Source: Escherichia phage SDYTW1-F1-2-2_3
DNA: 64,000 nt
Direction: 5' to 3' (one strand)
Sequence record: OR296290.1
Shown here: positions 8,557-29,487 of the stretch, piece after piece
How positions within the stretch are numbered: the first letter of the stretch is position 1
Layout of the letters: the number at the start of each line of letters is the position of its first letter
Program-made: the position numbers and the translations under genes
The notes under the pieces: model-generated
What the model saw: the letters and a program-made list of their open reading frames with translations, nothing else
Told to the model about the DNA's origin: nothing
Databases searched by the model: none

Positions 8557-8625
8557 TATCTATACCTTTGTTGGTTTGTTTAGTTTATCCGAACTAGCCT
8601 CCTATCTCAAAGAGGCTAGAGCAGA

Positions 8626-12812: not shown

Positions 12813-13916
12813 TTACAGCGCTTGCTCTAACTGATTTTCCAGATGATCTGGAATGTACCCTGTGATGTTGTTATCACTGTGTCCTGACTCACGTAGCAAG
12901 TCAAAAATAGCACGGATACGTTGCTCTGGTGCAGATCGTACAGTAGATAGATCGGTAGTACGAAGCATAACCAGAATCTCTTGGTACAAGTTGTTAGCGT
13001 TCCCTCGGACATATCCAAGGAATCCGTAGAAGTCTGAGATATGACGTAGGTCAACAAGAACTTCTCCGTTGGAGTTGGTTCGACGTAAACGAATACGACC
13101 AGACTGTTCTACTTCATGAGAACGACAATACAAAACATCACGGGCCATACAATACCCTGAATGCAAGTCCGACTCGTCCAGATTGTAATCCAGAGGAAGG
13201 TAAGGAAGCATTGGGGCAAATCGTACAGTATTTAAATGCTCGATAAACTGATCATTGCTCATCTCTGCGTTATCTAAAGCCAGCTTCTTCAACATCAAGA
13301 AGCGGTTAACCAGATTGAGAAGTTGACCACGTTTCCACTTAGGCTCACTGATACGGAACTCAATCGAACCATATTGGGCAAGTGGCAGAAGGTTCAGAGA
13401 TGTATATTTATCCCATGAACGAACCAGACGGTTGAAGAACTCTTCATCGTCGTAGTTAAATGCGTCAGAGGCATTCATTACCTGTGCTTGTACCACTGCG
13501 AAAGCAGGGCAGAAGTTGCTACGGTAACGATGGTAGCCTGAACACTTGAACAACATCTTTTCATAGAAGGTCCAAGCGAGAATGGTTTTCTTGAGGATAT
13601 TACTATCAGCATCCCTCATATCCATATGAACGTGAGTAGAGCAACGCCAAGTCCCCTCGGCGTGCGATTCAGCTACAGCTTCACTCAGGTTGTTGATAGC
13701 GTCTAACAACTCCTGTCCGTTGTAAGGTCGTGAACATACCATTTCACAACCATTACGCAGGGAACCATCCTCTGTACAATCCCACATATCTGCTTCGATA
13801 TGATCGGAACCTTCGAGTTCAAGTTCAATACCGACACCGCACTGAAGTGCAATTGAACTATGCGCCTCAGTTAAATGACCTTCTCGATATCCAAAAGTTT
13901 GCGCTACAGTTGTCAT
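12813..13916 (-). CDS. amidoligase (glutamine-synthetase-like)
   Basis: GVGIELELEG...DGSLRNGCE...CSTHVHMDMRD pattern of GS-like amidoligases. Confidence 0.6.
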   Translation of the reverse strand: MTTVAQTFGYREGHLTEAHSSIALQCGVGIELELEGSDHIEADMWDCTEDGSLRNGCEMVCSRPYNGQELLDAINNLSEAVAESHAEGTWRCSTHVHMDMRDADSNILKKTILAWTFYEKMLFKCSGYHRYRSNFCPAFAVVQAQVMNASDAFNYDDEEFFNRLVRSWDKYTSLNLLPLAQYGSIEFRISEPKWKRGQLLNLVNRFLMLKKLALDNAEMSNDQFIEHLNTVRFAPMLPYLPLDYNLDESDLHSGYCMARDVLYCRSHEVEQSGRIRLRRTNSNGEVLVDLRHISDFYGFLGYVRGNANNLYQEILVMLRTTDLSTVRSAPEQRIRAIFDLLRESGHSDNNITGYIPDHLENQLEQAL

Positions 13917-16825: not shown

Positions 16826-18022
16826 TTATTTTCCTAAAAATAATCCGCTCATAACACCATCCCACTCAGAGGACGGAATCACTGAATACTCCGAACTTTG
16901 GTCCAGAGTTCCACTACTAAATCGCTGAACAATGTTATAGATGTTGAACATATCTTTAGTCTCAGCGCGATAAGCGTAGACTAGTCTGTCAGCCGTTCTT
17001 TCATCTTTAGATACTCGACGAGCAAAGGTAACCAGAAGGTTATCACCTTTCAGTATTTCTGACTCATCTTTTACTAAATCAGGATGCATAACTGGCAAGA
17101 ACATCGAGTTATTAACTCTCAATTCTGCTGTTTCGTCATTATCATAATGAATCCACTTAAAGTCTTCATCACGGAAGTGACCGCATCCATCTCTGTATGA
17201 CTGTTGACGCCAAGGTACTTGGAATGCTTCAGCATACTTATCAGCCATGCCTACTGTAAACAGCGACGCTGGGAAGATACAAGCATCCCAATCATTACCA
17301 ACCAGAGTTGCTTTCGTTTCACCCAAGAGGTTAGTGTAAGTGCTAACCATTCGGGAATAAACGTAAGCCTGAAGGATTGTCCAACCTTCAACCAACCATT
17401 TATGAAGGAAGGTTTCAACTTGACTCTCTTCATCTTCACAATAGAAGGTTCGATCTAACATCAAATAGAACAGACAACGATCAGCAGGAACATTCTCAGT
17501 TGCTACACCCATAAAACCTTTATCGTGCCAGCGTAAACAGGAGGGACGATCTTTGTCCACAAATGCTTCCATAGCTTCCAGTACAGCACGAGGTGTGGTT
17601 TGATGTTCAGGGTTTTTACTGTTCCAACGATCAATGTTATTCTTAGGAGGTGTGTCTTCATCTTCATACGAACACCAACTTAAAGCTTCAGCTACGTGCT
17701 TTCCATCACGCCAGCGTCTAAAACCTAACATCTTCATGTGAGTTCCGGAGTTCCAGATATGCTTGATTTTACACATATCCATTTCTCGACTTAACAGGAA
17801 CTCTTCCCCATCAGCACTACGAACGTTAGCTTCTTCATGCCACACTCGAACGTGCATATTCCACCCATGAGTTGCCTCATACATGTTAGGGTCGAAGTAT
17901 TCATCTTCGTCATCATCTTCATCAACGCCACCATTATAGTTGCGAAGCTGAAGGAACCCATAACAAGGAGGGTGGACCGTTAAAACATTACCTTCAGTAT
18001 CTTCTAATGTTACTGGAAACAT
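16826..18022 (-). CDS. hypothetical protein (398 aa), acidic
   Basis: Long ORF, no motif recognised. Confidence 0.5.
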   Translation of the reverse strand: MFPVTLEDTEGNVLTVHPPCYGFLQLRNYNGGVDEDDDEDEYFDPNMYEATHGWNMHVRVWHEEANVRSADGEEFLLSREMDMCKIKHIWNSGTHMKMLGFRRWRDGKHVAEALSWCSYEDEDTPPKNNIDRWNSKNPEHQTTPRAVLEAMEAFVDKDRPSCLRWHDKGFMGVATENVPADRCLFYLMLDRTFYCEDEESQVETFLHKWLVEGWTILQAYVYSRMVSTYTNLLGETKATLVGNDWDACIFPASLFTVGMADKYAEAFQVPWRQQSYRDGCGHFRDEDFKWIHYDNDETAELRVNNSMFLPVMHPDLVKDESEILKGDNLLVTFARRVSKDERTADRLVYAYRAETKDMFNIYNIVQRFSSGTLDQSSEYSVIPSSEWDGVMSGLFLGK

Positions 18023-18033
18023 TATACCAACCT

Positions 18034-18396
18034 CTATTGGTTTTTAATCAACTCAATCGACTTACGGATATAAAGAATATCTCGGAAGTTTCGATAGTTG
18101 TTCATAAATTGGTGCTTCTGGAAAGTAGCTTCTTCCAGAGCTTTCTTTGCTTCTGTGTAGTTTTTACGGGCAAGATGTACAACCCGCTCTGGTAACACAT
18201 TTGCATGACGGATGACATACTTGTGAGCTTTCATGTTGCTTTGCTCACGAGTAATCTTACCTTTAGCAACTTTGATACCATTTGCAATCCAAGCAAGTTC
18301 TTGCTCAAGCTCATCGTTGGACATTCCACCGAGATTTGATGCAACCTTGTTCAGAGTTTCAATATTAACGTTGCCCTTAATGGGACGTGTATTCAT
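18034..18396 (-). CDS. hypothetical protein (120 aa)
   Basis: Track ORF. Confidence 0.45.
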   Translation of the reverse strand: MNTRPIKGNVNIETLNKVASNLGGMSNDELEQELAWIANGIKVAKGKITREQSNMKAHKYVIRHANVLPERVVHLARKNYTEAKKALEEATFQKHQFMNNYRNFRDILYIRKSIELIKNQ

Positions 18397-18398
18397 AC

Positions 18399-18626
18399 TT
18401 ACTCCTGTTGTTTACACTCGTCAATAACCCACTGATAAGTGGATTGCCCAGAAAAGAAACACTGAATAAATCCAGATGTTCTCTGCGTTACCAGTGCTAG
18501 TGCACAAATCACTACCGCTGCTGCTAGCAGTTTTAAATCTAATTTAGACATATTTCCTCTCGTTGAATTTAAAAAAGGACTCTCCGAAAAGAGCCAAGCT
18601 TTAAATCCAAAAAAGATATCACCCAA
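18399..18626 (-). CDS. small membrane protein (75 aa)
   Basis: Hydrophobic segment LKLLAAAVVICALALV. Confidence 0.4.
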   Translation of the reverse strand: MGDIFFGFKAWLFSESPFLNSTRGNMSKLDLKLLAAAVVICALALVTQRTSGFIQCFFSGQSTYQWVIDECKQQE

Positions 18627-18778
18627 TATCTGTGGATAACCTGCTCTTAAAATATCTATCCGACGGATGTTTGAGGATTATTCCTCGCCCTAGCATCGGC
18701 CCCATACGGGAAATATATTAAGATTAGGTTAGTTGAGTTAGAATAACTCACATAGCCCTCCGAAGAAGGCTATAGGCG

Positions 18779-26371: not shown

Positions 26372-26402
26372 AAAGAAAAGGCGCTACCCGTTAAGATAGC
26401 GC
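26372..26402 (-). terminator. intrinsic terminator after 26428-27336
   Basis: Minus-sense GCGCUA-loop-UAGCGC followed by CUUUUCUUUU. Confidence 0.5.
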
Positions 26403-26427
26403 CTTATGCTTATTTGAATTATCTTAC

Positions 26428-27336
26428 TTATGCTGCCTGACGTGCCGCCATAATCTCAGCTGCCTTGCGCAATACTTCTTCTTCTTCTGCTTTCGCAGCT
26501 TGTTCGGTACGGGTAGCAACCGTTGAAGAGATACGACCGCGCAGACTTTCTAACTTCTCCTGCATAGCTGCAACAACCTTTTCCATTTCATCAGCGTATG
26601 AATCAAGTGATTCTAATTCCTTGCTTGATGCGTTCATCAGATAATCGTCAGAGATCGCTACCGTTGAAGCCGTGACTTTCTTGATGAGTGAATCAAAGGA
26701 CTTTTTAACTTTCCCCACTTCTTCACTCAAGGCAATAGTATTATCACTGGTAGCGCCATTACGCTCATCAGCCAACAATTTGGCTTCGATACGGATTGCA
26801 TTCAAGCGTTCAACTAAAGCGTAAATATCTTGGTTAAAATCTTCCTTGTTTTTCGCCGGGATTTGCAGATGGGCAGCCACGTTGTCATTGCAACCTTTGT
26901 AAAAATTAGGGTTATCGACTTCAATTTCACGGCCTAAAGCAAAGTTTTCGAAAGCATTTGACCAGCGAGCGCGGTTTTGTTCCATTTTGGCCTTAATTTG
27001 CGCTTCTTTCGCATCTTCTTTCGCTTTCGCTTCACCTTCCAGATTAATCCACTTCTTACGACCATTCGCCGCATCAGTGTTAAACTTGATAGGAGTTAAG
27101 AAAGTGATTGCAGTGGCGATCACATCCATATCGCGGAAACGTTCGGTTAACAGGAAATCAACCGCCGACTGCAATACATCTAACTTCTTGCCGTTGCTAC
27201 GGAAGTGCTGCAAGTGCCCTAACAGAAAATTAGAAACATCTTGTTTGATCGCCGCGTTATTACTACGAATGTTGTTAGCCAGTGCGTTAAAACCAGATTC
27301 TTTTACCAGATTAAAAATTTTAGCCATGATATTCAC
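26428..27336 (-). CDS. hypothetical coiled-coil protein (302 aa); first gene of leftward block
   Basis: Long ORF adjacent to the central control region; terminator hairpin immediately downstream. Confidence 0.5.
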   Translation of the reverse strand: MNIMAKIFNLVKESGFNALANNIRSNNAAIKQDVSNFLLGHLQHFRSNGKKLDVLQSAVDFLLTERFRDMDVIATAITFLTPIKFNTDAANGRKKWINLEGEAKAKEDAKEAQIKAKMEQNRARWSNAFENFALGREIEVDNPNFYKGCNDNVAAHLQIPAKNKEDFNQDIYALVERLNAIRIEAKLLADERNGATSDNTIALSEEVGKVKKSFDSLIKKVTASTVAISDDYLMNASSKELESLDSYADEMEKVVAAMQEKLESLRGRISSTVATRTEQAAKAEEEEVLRKAAEIMAARQAA

Positions 27337-28148
27337 CTTTCAATTGTAAGGGCACTATGCCCCGCTCTCTATGAGCTTTTTAAGTCGCCATTGACTTATC
27401 GATAATCACTCATTGTTAAGTAATTATTGATAAGCGGGGCGGTCTTGTCAGGAGTTAACCTTGCCGCCCCCTTATCCGTGATGTTTCATCTGGTATCTTT
27501 AATTAGTCGCTATAAACGAAGCCGACCTGATAGCGATGATCAATCATCACAATAAGGCTATGCGTCCGACTCTATTTAATTACATTACTGTAACCGTCGG
27601 CAATATCGTTTACTTTGCTTTCGCTCCCGCCTATCCTTTTATATCAGCTCTCTTTCGCTAGTCATCGCCCACTATGGGATACTATTGCGAAAGAGTCACT
27701 AACCGCCTACTATTCCGGCGTTTTATATCTTTCAGCAGGTTTACTACATAAACCGGCTATGTACTTTCATCGTAAGACGAATCTCAAGCCGTTCACATCG
27801 TAAACGTTCGCACTAAACCTTATTGTTAAATAGCAATTTGCCATTCTTTAACCATCCCCCACCGCCCTCAATTGGGCGTTAATTCGTCGGACTCGTCTGC
27901 CCTGATAAACTTCTTCACTGTAGCACCTTGTTAGCGATGGCTGCCGCTACCCTTAACCGTGGGCGATTAGCTTAAGCCGTTGCGTGTACTCAATGTATCC
28001 GCTTATCAGTGGCGACTTTTCCAGTTAAGGGATTGTAAAGCTGTTTACCCTGATATTTTAGGGAGCCTTACACCGTTTTATCTGGTATGTTTTCCGATGG
28101 TTATTATCATCAAACATATGCAACCGATATATGGGAACGTTTAAATTA

Positions 28149-28906
28149 TTAAAGAGCGGTAAATCTGTCAGTGTGCTTTCTCACACTACGCAACTGTAAG
28201 CCGTTGTTTCGCTTTTCACTGAAGCGGTGATTTGCCTAGTGAGTACGCTCATTATGGACCATGATGTTTTCGCTGTCAACCGCTTTTTTAATCTTTTTCG
28301 TCGTTCCCGCTATTGGGAGGATATATCAACCAGCTTTATTTGATTGAAGATTAAGCGGTGAGGCTTAACTCATGATTCACATTGTTAAAGAGCGTTTAGC
28401 CTTTTATAGTGTCTGCTAATCACTGCATCATTAAAGGCTTACTTATTCATTAACGGGGCGCCTAAGCCCGAACTAATCGCCGCACTGTGTGCCACCTTTC
28501 CCGCGATACGTTGATTTGGGAACTAGTTAACGTTGTTTTGTTAACTTGTGGTTAGTATGAACTACCTTAACCACGTTTGCAACCTCTTTTTTATCATCTT
28601 CTTTTATTCTTTTCCCTTATCTCGCGTGAGTCTATGCGAAAGGGCAAGATGATAAGTTTTTAAAGAGCGGGATGCTTTAAGTCATCGCTGACTATGCTCA
28701 CTATATATCAGGCTATTTTCGGTGTCAATACTCTTTTTAAGAATATTTTCACTTTCTAGCCTGATTTTTAAAGAGCGGGGCAATTTCTTGCCTTGTATGT
28801 TTTTCATCGTACCCGATGAATTGAAGTATACGCCAACCAGTGAGTAATGCAATAGGGTAGGGCAAATTATTTTAAACTTTTTCACTATAGGAAGATAAAA
28901 GAGCGG
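28149..28906 (+). repeat. array of five direct repeats with core TTAAAGAGCGG
   Basis: Copies at 28149, 28385, 28660, 28768, 28896; copies 3 and 4 share the 15-mer TTTTTAAAGAGCGGG. Confidence 0.6.
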
Positions 28907-29112
28907 GCGCACGTGATACATCAAAGGAAACGGCTTGTAAAGCGATATTTAGCGGCCTAAAACGCACTGTAGCGAGCTAAAAGGGAGTAAGGTATACAAT
29001 CACCTTAGAAAAGAAAAAAGCCTCATAGTGAGGCTTATAGGAAGGATTTAAAGCATCAGATAGATTATGACCATAGGCATGACCACGGCACAATAAAGGA
29101 GAAAGATTAAGC

Positions 29113-29487
29113 CTATGGATTTATACACTGACCGTTACCGGATTCCATTTCATTCATAGACTCATCAAAGAGCGTCAACGATGAGCGCATCAAGTGATCA
29201 ACCGTAATTTGTTTGCCAGTGGTTTCATTTACCAGTTGAATAGTTTTATCATATGATTGTACATGTTCGAAATCATTTACATGTAAAATAATAACCTTCG
29301 GTGACTTTTTACCAGTATCATAGTTTTCTACAATATAGGTGCACTGTAAACCGTCAACCGTAGCAGGGGAAAACGTTGCAGCCTTAACGCTACCCATAGC
29401 CGACAGCAGGACACCTAACAGGAGAACAACCAGAAAGAAGCCTACAAATACTTTCACTACGAATTTAATAATACCCATGATAATCAA
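29113..29487 (-). CDS. membrane/secreted protein (124 aa)
   Basis: N-terminal hydrophobic segment FVVKVFVGFFLVVLLLGVLLSAMG. Confidence 0.45.
   Translation of the reverse strand: MIIMGIIKFVVKVFVGFFLVVLLLGVLLSAMGSVKAATFSPATVDGLQCTYIVENYDTGKKSPKVIILHVNDFEHVQSYDKTIQLVNETTGKQITVDHLMRSSLTLFDESMNEMESGNGQCINP

Follow-up and report, generated by a model that had tools for sequence, protein, structure and literature searches.

The early operons of bacteriophage HK022 contain a pair of similar structured RNAs, the put sites putL and putR, which lie upstream of terminators and exert their effect on RNA polymerase (PMC9378689). They span ~70 nucleotides (nt), consist of two long irregular stem-loops, lie close to promoters and function through the fold of the nascent RNA, whose helices are irregular (PMC9378689). 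Here, we describe a conserved structured RNA of Escherichia phage SDYTW1-F1-2-2_3 (sequence record OR296290.1), present as two copies, A and B, in minus sense on the 64,000-nt stretch that was analyzed (hereafter, the window). Like put, by description, the element occurs as two similar structured copies in a host-transcribed early region. Unlike put, it has five helices in ~125 nt plus extensions rather than two stem-loops in ~70 nt, and it lies kilobases from promoters, directly after a stop codon. As for placement ahead of terminators, copy A is followed by one at a distance of 60-90 nt, those after copy B are weak or distant, and other terminators precede both copies. HK022 put can be regarded as the nearest precedent in logic, though its defining features are not found here. 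The put RNA itself binds the zinc-binding domain of the RNA polymerase beta' subunit and suppresses termination without protein factors.

Other early elements are also comparable in part. In phage lambda, nutR is located in a 3' untranslated region (3' UTR) just upstream of a terminator. The RNase III sites of the T7 early messenger RNA (mRNA) and 3' stabilizer hairpins are host-transcribed, structured intercistronic elements with shared sequence that leave a hairpin at the 3' end of the upstream cistron. In enterobacterial small RNAs (sRNAs), an AU-rich stretch, a terminator and a U-tail form the usual 3' module. Phage phiEco32, to which the window is related, is a model for the takeover of host RNA polymerase by a virulent phage via the gp36 sigma factor and gp79.

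A five-helix RNA domain in two copies

The early polycistronic transcript, which runs in minus sense, very probably carries a conserved, structured RNA domain whose helix 1 (hp1) is the hairpin at 18751-18774. RNAalifold predicts the same order in both copies and in several phages: an AGUAAC motif, hairpins hp1 and hp2, a G-free linker, hairpin hp3, and helix P4, which encloses a CUAGGGN/NAACAUC loop and hairpin hp5 (Table 1). Extensions included, copy A reaches ~210 nt and copy B >290 nt, and each copy begins a few nt past the stop codon of a small early open reading frame (ORF), 4-14 nt in every copy examined. Copies A and B show identity that extends past the hp1 stems (CCUAUAGCC...GAGGGCUAUGUGAG), and a second common block 60-70 nt downstream, GCUAGGGnGAG-loop-CUCnAACAUCCG, occurs twice in the window against 0.00 expected occurrences.

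A covariance model built from 11 sequences and run over the window with filters off, a search that the sequence-only reading had proposed, returned exactly two strong matches, copy A (135.2 bits, E = 1e-28) and copy B (105.4 bits, E = 6e-22), with all others below 17 bits. In the RNAalifold consensus of the core, 8 of the 24 pairs show compensatory changes. Kuravirus, Suseptimavirus and Moazamivirus supplied 33 copies for an alignment that was fitted to the model and whose changes stem from about five lineages; in it, 98.0% of cells form standard pairs, compared with 31-48% when partners are slid by 1-3 columns; double (compensatory) changes affect 9 of the 24 pairs, and no shuffle reached the observed covariation score. 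Within this set, the hp1 stem is paired in 98.8% of cells, with a compensatory U-A to A-U change and U·G to C-G changes, while compensatory changes are seen in 3 of the 6 pairs of P4 and 2 of the 5 pairs of hp5. The unpaired CUAGGG, AACAUC and CACUAACCUA are invariant. Since G·U pairs stabilize this fold, the structure is assigned to the minus-sense RNA.

The helices differ in sequence between copies and phages. In copy A, hp2 also occurs as GAGUUA/UGACUC and GAGCUA/UGGCUC, with a compensatory U-A to C-G change in SU7-like phages and a longer loop in 7-11-like ones. Across copies, hp3, a stem of 3 base pairs (bp) with an RUAU loop, covaries as CCC/GGG, GCC/GGC and GGC/GCC. P4 has 6 bp and reads CCGAUG/CGUCGG in coliphage copy A and UCGGUG/CGCCGA in 7-11-like phages; its copy-B forms are ACACCG/CGGUGU and UCACCG/CGGUGA. 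This helix encloses an invariant symmetric 7x7 internal loop, 5'-CUAGGG-N1 / N2-AACAUC-3', in which N1/N2 are A/G in 18 copies, C/A in 13 and A/A in 2, a non-Watson-Crick covariation whose state switches within each lineage and which looks like an isosteric non-canonical pair stacked on hp5. The latter appears as GAGG/CCUC, GAGC/GCUC or GAG-CUUG-CUC, and the hp1 loop is UNCG in most copy-A sequences, with an arm spacing of 4-10 nt across copies.

Several known motifs were considered for these parts and rejected. Both halves of an 11-nt GAAA tetraloop receptor look-alike in copy A (CCUAAG/UAUGG) are missing in copy B, and hp3 covaries as a simple hairpin. A GGA sponge of the CsrA type would lose its GGA when N1 = C, and the 7x7 loop, compared by eye, does not match kink-turn, sarcin-ricin or loop E motifs. 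A coding element is contradicted by indels of 2, 4, 6 and 7 nt, not all multiples of three, and by an in-frame stop in copy B.

Table 1. Positions of the RNA element and of related features in the window.
Feature	Position	Strand	Description	Basis or remark
Copy A of the domain	18660-18783	minus	Paralogous to copy B	
5' motif	18778-18783	minus	AGUAAC, contains the stop codon of the upstream ORF	RRURAC kept in both copies, all phages
hp1, copy A	18751-18774	minus	10 bp, cUUCGg loop	Sequence; starts 4-5 nt past TAA at 18779-18781
hp2, copy A	18734-18750	minus	U-GAGUUA-UUC-UAACUC-A	
G-free linker, copy A	18711-18733	minus	ACUAACCUAAUCUUAAUAUAUUU	CACUAACCUA invariant, phiEco32 to 7-11
hp3, copy A	18701-18710	minus	CCC-GUAU-GGG	100% of cells paired
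P4 to hp5, copy A	18660-18699	minus	P4 CCGAUG/CGUCGG, internal loop, hp5 GAGG-AAUAAU-CCUC	
3' strand of long-range helix	18637-18649	minus	UAAGA...AGGUUA, downstream of P4	
DnaA-box consensus	18631-18639	minus	TTATCCACA, perfect	
Intrinsic terminator, copy A	18571-18605	minus	A-tract UUUAAAG, stem GGCUCU/AGAGUCC, U6	Terminator scan
Copy B of the domain	23011-23129	minus	Paralogous to copy A	
hp1, copy B	23087-23116	minus	UAUAGCCCUU-10 nt-GAGGGCUAUG, 10 bp	Starts 9 nt past TAA at 23125-23127
Rest of core, copy B	23011-23086	minus	hp2 (23072-23086) GAGG/CCUC, linker, hp3 (23047-23056) GGC-AUAU-GCC, P4 ACACCG/CGGUGU, CUAGGG-A / G-AACAUC, hp5 GAG-CUUG-CUC	
Copy-B-specific extension	22840-23010	minus	~200 nt of covarying structure	RNAalifold, 7 copy-B sequences: 62 pairs, 12 compensatory
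Two hairpins of the extension	22954-22977; ~22917-22945	minus	UA-GGGG-UA apical loops	
Long hairpin of the extension	~22860-22913	minus	Apex 22876-22900	
Separate post-stop hairpin	8594-8619	minus	10 bp (11 bp in relatives), CUAGCCUCUU-UGAGAU-AGGAGGCUAG	Sequence
Terminator-like hairpins, early cluster	26378-26405; 25064-25081; 24977-24996; 22876-22900; 22654-22679; 20577-20596; 18578-18595	minus	n = 7	Terminator scan of 17500-27500
boxA-like CGCTCTTTAA cluster	28149-28158; 28385-28394; 28660-28669; 28768-28777; 28896-28905; 29165-29174	minus	Last two with 1 mismatch	Motif scan
ORF upstream of copy B	23125-23343	minus	phi32_113 homologue, 72 aa, SH3-like all-beta	
Small SH3-like all-beta paralogues	23128-23343; 20999-21226; 19234-19527; 23813-24217; 23572-23829; 19747-19986	minus	At least 6 in the early region	hmmsearch, E = 5e-28 to 1e-5

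The flagged hairpins and a third, separate one

The sequence-only reading had singled out three post-stop hairpins with similar stems, and re-reading of the sequence finds all three at the places given. The one at 18.7 kb is as described, with minus-strand 18773-18752 reading AUAGCCUUC-UUCG-GAGGGCUAU, 9 bp including one U·G, 5 nt past the stop; a closing U·G extends it to 10 bp. The one at 23.1 kb is likewise present, its distance from the stop being 9 rather than 10 nt. In minus sense, the folding energies of 18751-18774, 23087-23116 and 8594-8619 are -13.1, -13.2 and -14.9 kcal/mol, compared with -8.1, -11.2 and -11.2 kcal/mol in plus sense, all three being more stable in minus sense because of G·U pairs. 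Only ~0.4% of 30-nt windows on the minus strand reach -12 kcal/mol, and the three rank among the ~30 strongest local hairpins of that strand.

The idea of a repeated minus-sense RNA element survives for the hairpins at 18.7 and 23.1 kb and fails for 8594-8619, and the repeated unit, taken to be a hairpin with a shared stem, is instead the five-helix domain of ~125 nt of which the hairpin is the first helix only. The hairpin at 8594-8619 has nothing beyond UAGCC/GGCUA in common with hp1 and lies between unrelated flanks; it reaches only 13.7 bits (E = 0.27) with the covariance model, contradicting its proposed kinship. The pattern TAGCC-N6-22-GGCTA occurs 3 times in the window compared with 0.51 expected, and 3 of 100 shuffles reach 3. 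Since two of these matches are paralogues, the third is no more than chance would give, the expectation of ~0.5 per window being enough to explain its apparent shared stem. Taken more widely, this expectation would also allow all these hairpins to be chance structures of AT-rich intergenic DNA that share a few bases, an explanation that holds for the kinship of the third hairpin and is refuted for copies A and B, where the composite two-copy pattern, the covariance-model E-values and conservation with covariation across three phage genera and metagenomes make it extremely improbable.

The third hairpin is conserved in its own right and is not a copy of the element. It lies between the gp78 and gp77 homologues, just downstream of the gene for the homologue of gp79, an RNA-polymerase-binding protein, and it is kept in phiEco32, SGF2 and SU7 with an 11-bp stem, a GAAA loop, conserved flanks (8557-8625) and no U-tract. 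In SGF2, an extra gene is inserted just after its counterpart.

The sequences directly after the three hairpins are UGAGUUAUUCUA, UGAGGGUGUUCC and UUCGGAUAAACU, without the U-tract of an intrinsic terminator, although all three have the GC-rich hairpin of one (9-11 bp stems, -13 to -15 kcal/mol). The terminator scan (17500-27500) lists neither 18751-18774 nor 23087-23116, and 8594-8619, which lies outside the scan, has no U-run by eye, in agreement with the earlier view that these are not classical terminators. A classical terminator does exist for copy A; it is invariant and lies ~150 nt downstream of the hairpin at 18751-18774.

Stable GC-rich stems and tetraloops without a U-tract, 4-14 nt past a stop codon, are features that an mRNA stability or processing element would have, in which hp1 or the whole domain would block 3'-to-5' exonucleases or direct a cistron-separating endonuclease cut, as the T7 RNase III sites do. 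As in T7, the element is intercistronic and structured and lies on a host-transcribed early polycistronic RNA, and the unrelated hairpin at 8594-8619, with its GNRA loop in relatives, suggests by its post-stop placement that post-stop hairpins are a general habit of this genome. RNase III needs roughly 20 bp, or two helical turns, of mostly paired RNA with an internal loop. No helix of the element comes near ~20 bp, hp1 having 10 bp and P4, loop and hp5 together ~17 positions. Unlike the T7 sites and stabilizers, the element has helices that are too short, only two copies, and more structure and invariant sequence than a stabilizer needs: an exonuclease barrier requires neither ~100 more nt with invariant unpaired bases nor an invariant stem sequence. 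We consider a stability or processing role unlikely.

Phylogenetic range and conservation

By blastn, copy A is found in 102 phage records, at 85-99% identity in Kuravirus and Suseptimavirus and at 73-75% in the Salmonella Moazamivirus group (7-11, SE131, SeKF_80 and pSal-SNUABM-01). Both copies are present in Kuravirus and Suseptimavirus. Between the E. coli phages and the 7-11-like phages of Salmonella, copy A retains 74% identity, while the surrounding 8 kb gives one Salmonella record by megablast, which needs ~85% identity and so shows only that the flanks are not near-identical. The element is the only part of the copy-A intergenic region that blastn can align between Kuravirus and Moazamivirus, a degree of conservation that implies an interaction partner conserved to the same extent.

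In IMG/VR, JGI metagenomes and GTDB genomes, scanned for exact patterns, true copies lay only on contigs that fit phiEco32-like or 7-11-like phages by size or title, short contigs being left unclassified; the remaining matches are chance occurrences in coding DNA. One GTDB contig labeled as an uncultured Peptococcaceae metagenome-assembled genome (MAG), CALKAR010000070.1 (8 kb), carries a typical Kuravirus copy A and is probably a phage contig mis-binned into a Firmicutes MAG.

Rfam 15 gives no match in the window at gathering thresholds, and at E<=10 over 18400-23400 only the transfer RNA (tRNA) and four sub-threshold matches appear, none overlapping copy A or B. The whole-window search missed the tRNA-Arg(TCT) gene at 21745-21821 on the minus strand (ARAGORN; 57.9 bits in a 5-kb Rfam search), so its negative result is not fully reliable. 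ARAGORN reports this tRNA only, and no tRNA, transfer-messenger RNA or tRNA-like match for the element. The literature found by keyword on phiEco32, SU10 and 7-11 does not mention a structured RNA, nor was a link between boxA and phiEco32 found in it, two primary phiEco32 papers (Savalia 2008, Pavlova 2012) lying outside this coverage. The element is a conserved structured RNA that matches no catalogued family, and its phylogenetic range is narrow.

Copy-specific extensions, terminator and alternative pairings

In copy A, the linker segment UAACCU (18726-18731) together with UCUUA (18719-18723) forms the 5' strand of a long-range helix, which makes hp3 and P4/hp5 the branches of a multiloop. 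In 11 copy-A sequences, 96-98% of the cells of long-range helices 3 and 4 are paired, and 3 pairs show compensatory changes. Over full-length copy A in the same 11 sequences, 99.1% of cells are paired, against 38-53% when slid, and 12 of 59 pairs are compensatory. The AGUAAC motif can also pair with GUUAUU (18741-18746) in the 5' arm and loop of hp2, giving helix P0, which would enclose hp1 and exclude hp2; RNAalifold predicts P0 on the 11 copy-A sequences, with G·U to A-U changes.

The stem and U-tract of the copy-A terminator are invariant from phiEco32 to 7-11, while its loop is variable, and the 7-11 and SU7 records annotate the site as a terminator. The next gene starts at 18551, ~20 nt past the U-tract, with no room for a promoter. 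In the window, the copy-A segment AAGAGC (18641-18647) can pair with GCUCUU in the 5' arm of the terminator, according to a by-eye reading of the alignment.

The core of copy B is followed by its own extension. In it, a small hairpin precedes the ribosome-binding site of a 46-aa ORF (22687-22827), and the strong terminator at 22654-22679 lies past this ORF.

Covarying helices around invariant unpaired nt, a copy-A terminator and alternative pairings (P0 versus hp2; UAAC/GUUA) are features shared with terminator-type riboswitches and attenuators. Unlike these, the element has no Rfam match, copy B lacks the same platform, and no ligand is implied; a mutually exclusive antiterminator helix could not be demonstrated as conserved.

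The perfect DnaA-box consensus adjoining copy A, with AT-rich sequence nearby, raises the question of whether the locus acts at the DNA level, as a replication origin or protein-binding site. The inverted repeats would then serve as half-sites of an operator or form cruciforms, with host DnaA recruited by the box. The 11-mer GGTTATCCACA around the box is invariant in all 11 copy-A sequences, from phiEco32 to the 7-11-like phages, while its flanks vary; its first three box bases lie within the long-range RNA helix, which accounts for them, and UCCACA is unpaired yet invariant. The 64 kb contain two perfect DnaA boxes, the other one 36 kb away, rather than the cluster of a DnaA-dependent origin, and 30 one-mismatch boxes compared with 18 expected in the window. 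Moreover, pairing is preserved by compensatory changes where the sequence differs, the structure is strand-specific owing to its G·U pairs, the 4-10 nt spacing of the hp1 arms is unfit for a dimeric operator, and neither the core nor the extension of copy B contains a DnaA box, making a DNA-level element very unlikely. Separately, two inverted DnaA-box-like 9-mers, TTATCCACC on the minus and TTATTCACA on the plus strand, lie 2 bp apart at 23371-23390, just upstream of the ORF preceding copy B.

Proposed role on the early transcript

The window belongs to a phiEco32-like (Kuravirus) coliphage, a megablast of 17000-25000 matching 108 phage records at 90-95% identity, nearly all of them Escherichia podophages of ~77 kb. 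The minus strand carries the genes across the first 31 kb, and aligned with phiEco32, the hairpin at 18751-18774 falls between phi32_91 and phi32_90 and that at 23087-23116 between phi32_113 and phi32_112. Promoters for the phage sigma factor gp36 have been reported only before genes 6, 13, 26, 40, 58 and 68, and host sigma70 promoters drive the upstream part of the minus-strand gene cluster (PMC4331800; PMC4281155). With respect to transcription, no gene with a reported phage-sigma promoter lies further upstream than gene 68, and both copies are located well ahead of this gene, thus within the early part transcribed with host sigma70.

From the structure, strand, copy number, conservation and position relative to terminators, we infer the binding of a factor and the control of termination or read-through. 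The element would thereby be an RNA that binds a factor and, in cis, determines what becomes of the early transcript at terminators further downstream, a tentative proposal to which we assign a probability of about 40%. In this model, a conserved partner would dock on the core, probably contacting the hp1 stem and the 7x7 loop, both of them invariant. Host RNA polymerase, an elongation factor associated with it and an early protein of the phage are candidates for this partner. Acting in cis while being transcribed, the core would decide the outcome for the early transcript at the next intrinsic terminators downstream, which would be 18571-18605 for copy A, with 22876-22900 and 22654-22679 as candidates for copy B. 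In copy A, the long-range helix and the three UAAC and two GUUA repeats may give alternative pairings (P0 versus hp2), through which core folding could be linked to the end of translation at the adjacent stop and to use of the terminator.

Several observations weigh against this proposal. Copy B has no strong terminator close behind it, and the 7-11-like phages have copy A only, within the 24-39 kb fetched. The element is entirely absent from Cronobacter phages GAP52 and 009, and is thus not essential to this genome architecture. By eye, the AAGAGC/GCUCUU pairing is present in some coliphages and is reduced to 4-5 bp in phiEco32, SU7 and pSal-SNUABM-01; a conserved antiterminator pairing could not be demonstrated. 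Strong terminator-like sites at 26405-26378, 25081-25064 and 24996-24977 lie upstream of both copies, and the element cannot explain read-through there. Finally, boxA-like signals of the early leader, described below, may already provide antitermination.

The invariant terminator of copy A, with its U6 tail and an AU-rich stretch before it, would also suit a processed, stable non-coding RNA (ncRNA) acting in trans, cut upstream of hp1 and ending at the terminator (~210 nt from copy A, longer from copy B), whose core would sequester or mimic a host component or whose single strands would base-pair with target RNAs. The ultra-stable UNCG loop of hp1 in most copy-A sequences would shield the 5' end, the sequence of the element is conserved far beyond the flanking genes, upstream genes are swapped between phages while the element stays put, and a 7-11-like phage encodes a ProQ/FinO-family protein according to its annotation. 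Like the 3'-UTR-derived sRNAs of enterobacteria that associate with Hfq or ProQ, copy A, and copy A only, starts past a stop and ends in UUUAAAG-GGCUCU..AGAGUCC-UUUUUU. Unlike them, the module common to A and B is the 5' structured core and not a seed with a terminator, and copy B lacks a canonical terminator at the end of the structured region. No conserved promoter is found upstream, the prediction places the invariant linker within the long-range helix, paired rather than free, and complements of the linker, as possible trans targets within the phage, show no enrichment (27 matches in the window versus 26 expected). A search of E. coli genomes, which reports long matches only, gave no similarity to the element. 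A trans-acting ncRNA is a doubtful alternative to the cis-acting RNA proposed above.

In its widest form, which we regard as speculative and quite improbable, the cis-acting proposal would make the element a new class of nascent-RNA regulator in virulent phages, one that docks on the machinery of host transcription or translation, either by itself in the manner of put or via one of the small SH3/KOW-like early proteins encoded just upstream, reads translation termination at the adjacent stop, and decides passage of a conserved early terminator, creating a delayed-early class without an antiterminator protein of a known type. If control of read-through at early terminators is correct, it would add a regulatory layer and an RNA-machinery contact in >100 sequenced phages, several of them isolated on pathogenic or multidrug-resistant E. 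coli, and if the stable ncRNA is correct, it would join the small number of sRNAs known in virulent coliphages. Either way, the element is a well-defined Rfam candidate and a warning against reading single hairpins in isolation.

Early operon and neighboring genes

At two of the terminator-like hairpins of the early cluster that were checked (18578-18595 and 22654-22679), the next gene begins ~20-50 nt past the terminator with no visible promoter between, and early transcription must thus read through at least these two. The boxA-like cluster lies in the ORF-poor early promoter region, downstream of sigma70-like promoters (TTGACA-17-CATAAT near 28250-28290), where ~0.1 perfect 10-mers would be expected by chance. 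Its copy at 28385, CGCUCUUUAACAA, agrees with the rrn boxA at 12 of 13 positions, and the cluster suggests Nus-factor antitermination of the early operon, of the rrn or lambda type. It is absent from the fetched part of Salmonella phage pSal-SNUABM-01. Like the lambda nut and rrn antiterminators, the structured element occurs as two copies in early operons; unlike them, it has no boxA (CGCUCUUUA-like) in either copy, and its structure is far larger than the boxB hairpin. At <=1 mismatch, CGCTCTTTAA is found on the minus strand at 28149-29174 and 33503 and on the plus strand at 25371, and in neither copy.

The ORF ending just before the element usually belongs to a phage-specific family of 72-83 aa with GDVF...TG motifs. 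A member precedes the element at all fetched Kuravirus copy-B sites that retain a phi32_113 homologue and at all 7-11-like copy-A sites, and both SU7 copies are preceded by members that are paralogous to each other (E = 5e-8); a few metagenomic copy-B sites are preceded by other ORFs. This family of small SH3-like proteins has no Pfam match and is found only in these phages. A strict pairing of the RNA with such a gene is weakened by the number of paralogues in the early region, by distant family members in phage 009, which is without the RNA, and by copy A of the window and of phiEco32, which follows unrelated genes. The link between family and RNA is thus suggestive and not strict.

The GenBank record of pSal-SNUABM-01 annotates a ProQ/FinO-family RNA-binding protein in the early region, at 13041-13769 of the fetched stretch, ~5.5 kb upstream of this phage's copy of the RNA element. 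In the window, the 295-nt intergenic region at 20518-20812 on the minus strand contains several stable hairpins, for example at 20777-20802 and the terminator-like one at 20577-20596, and gives a weak match to the covariance model (14.4 bits, E = 0.19); it may contain another structured RNA.

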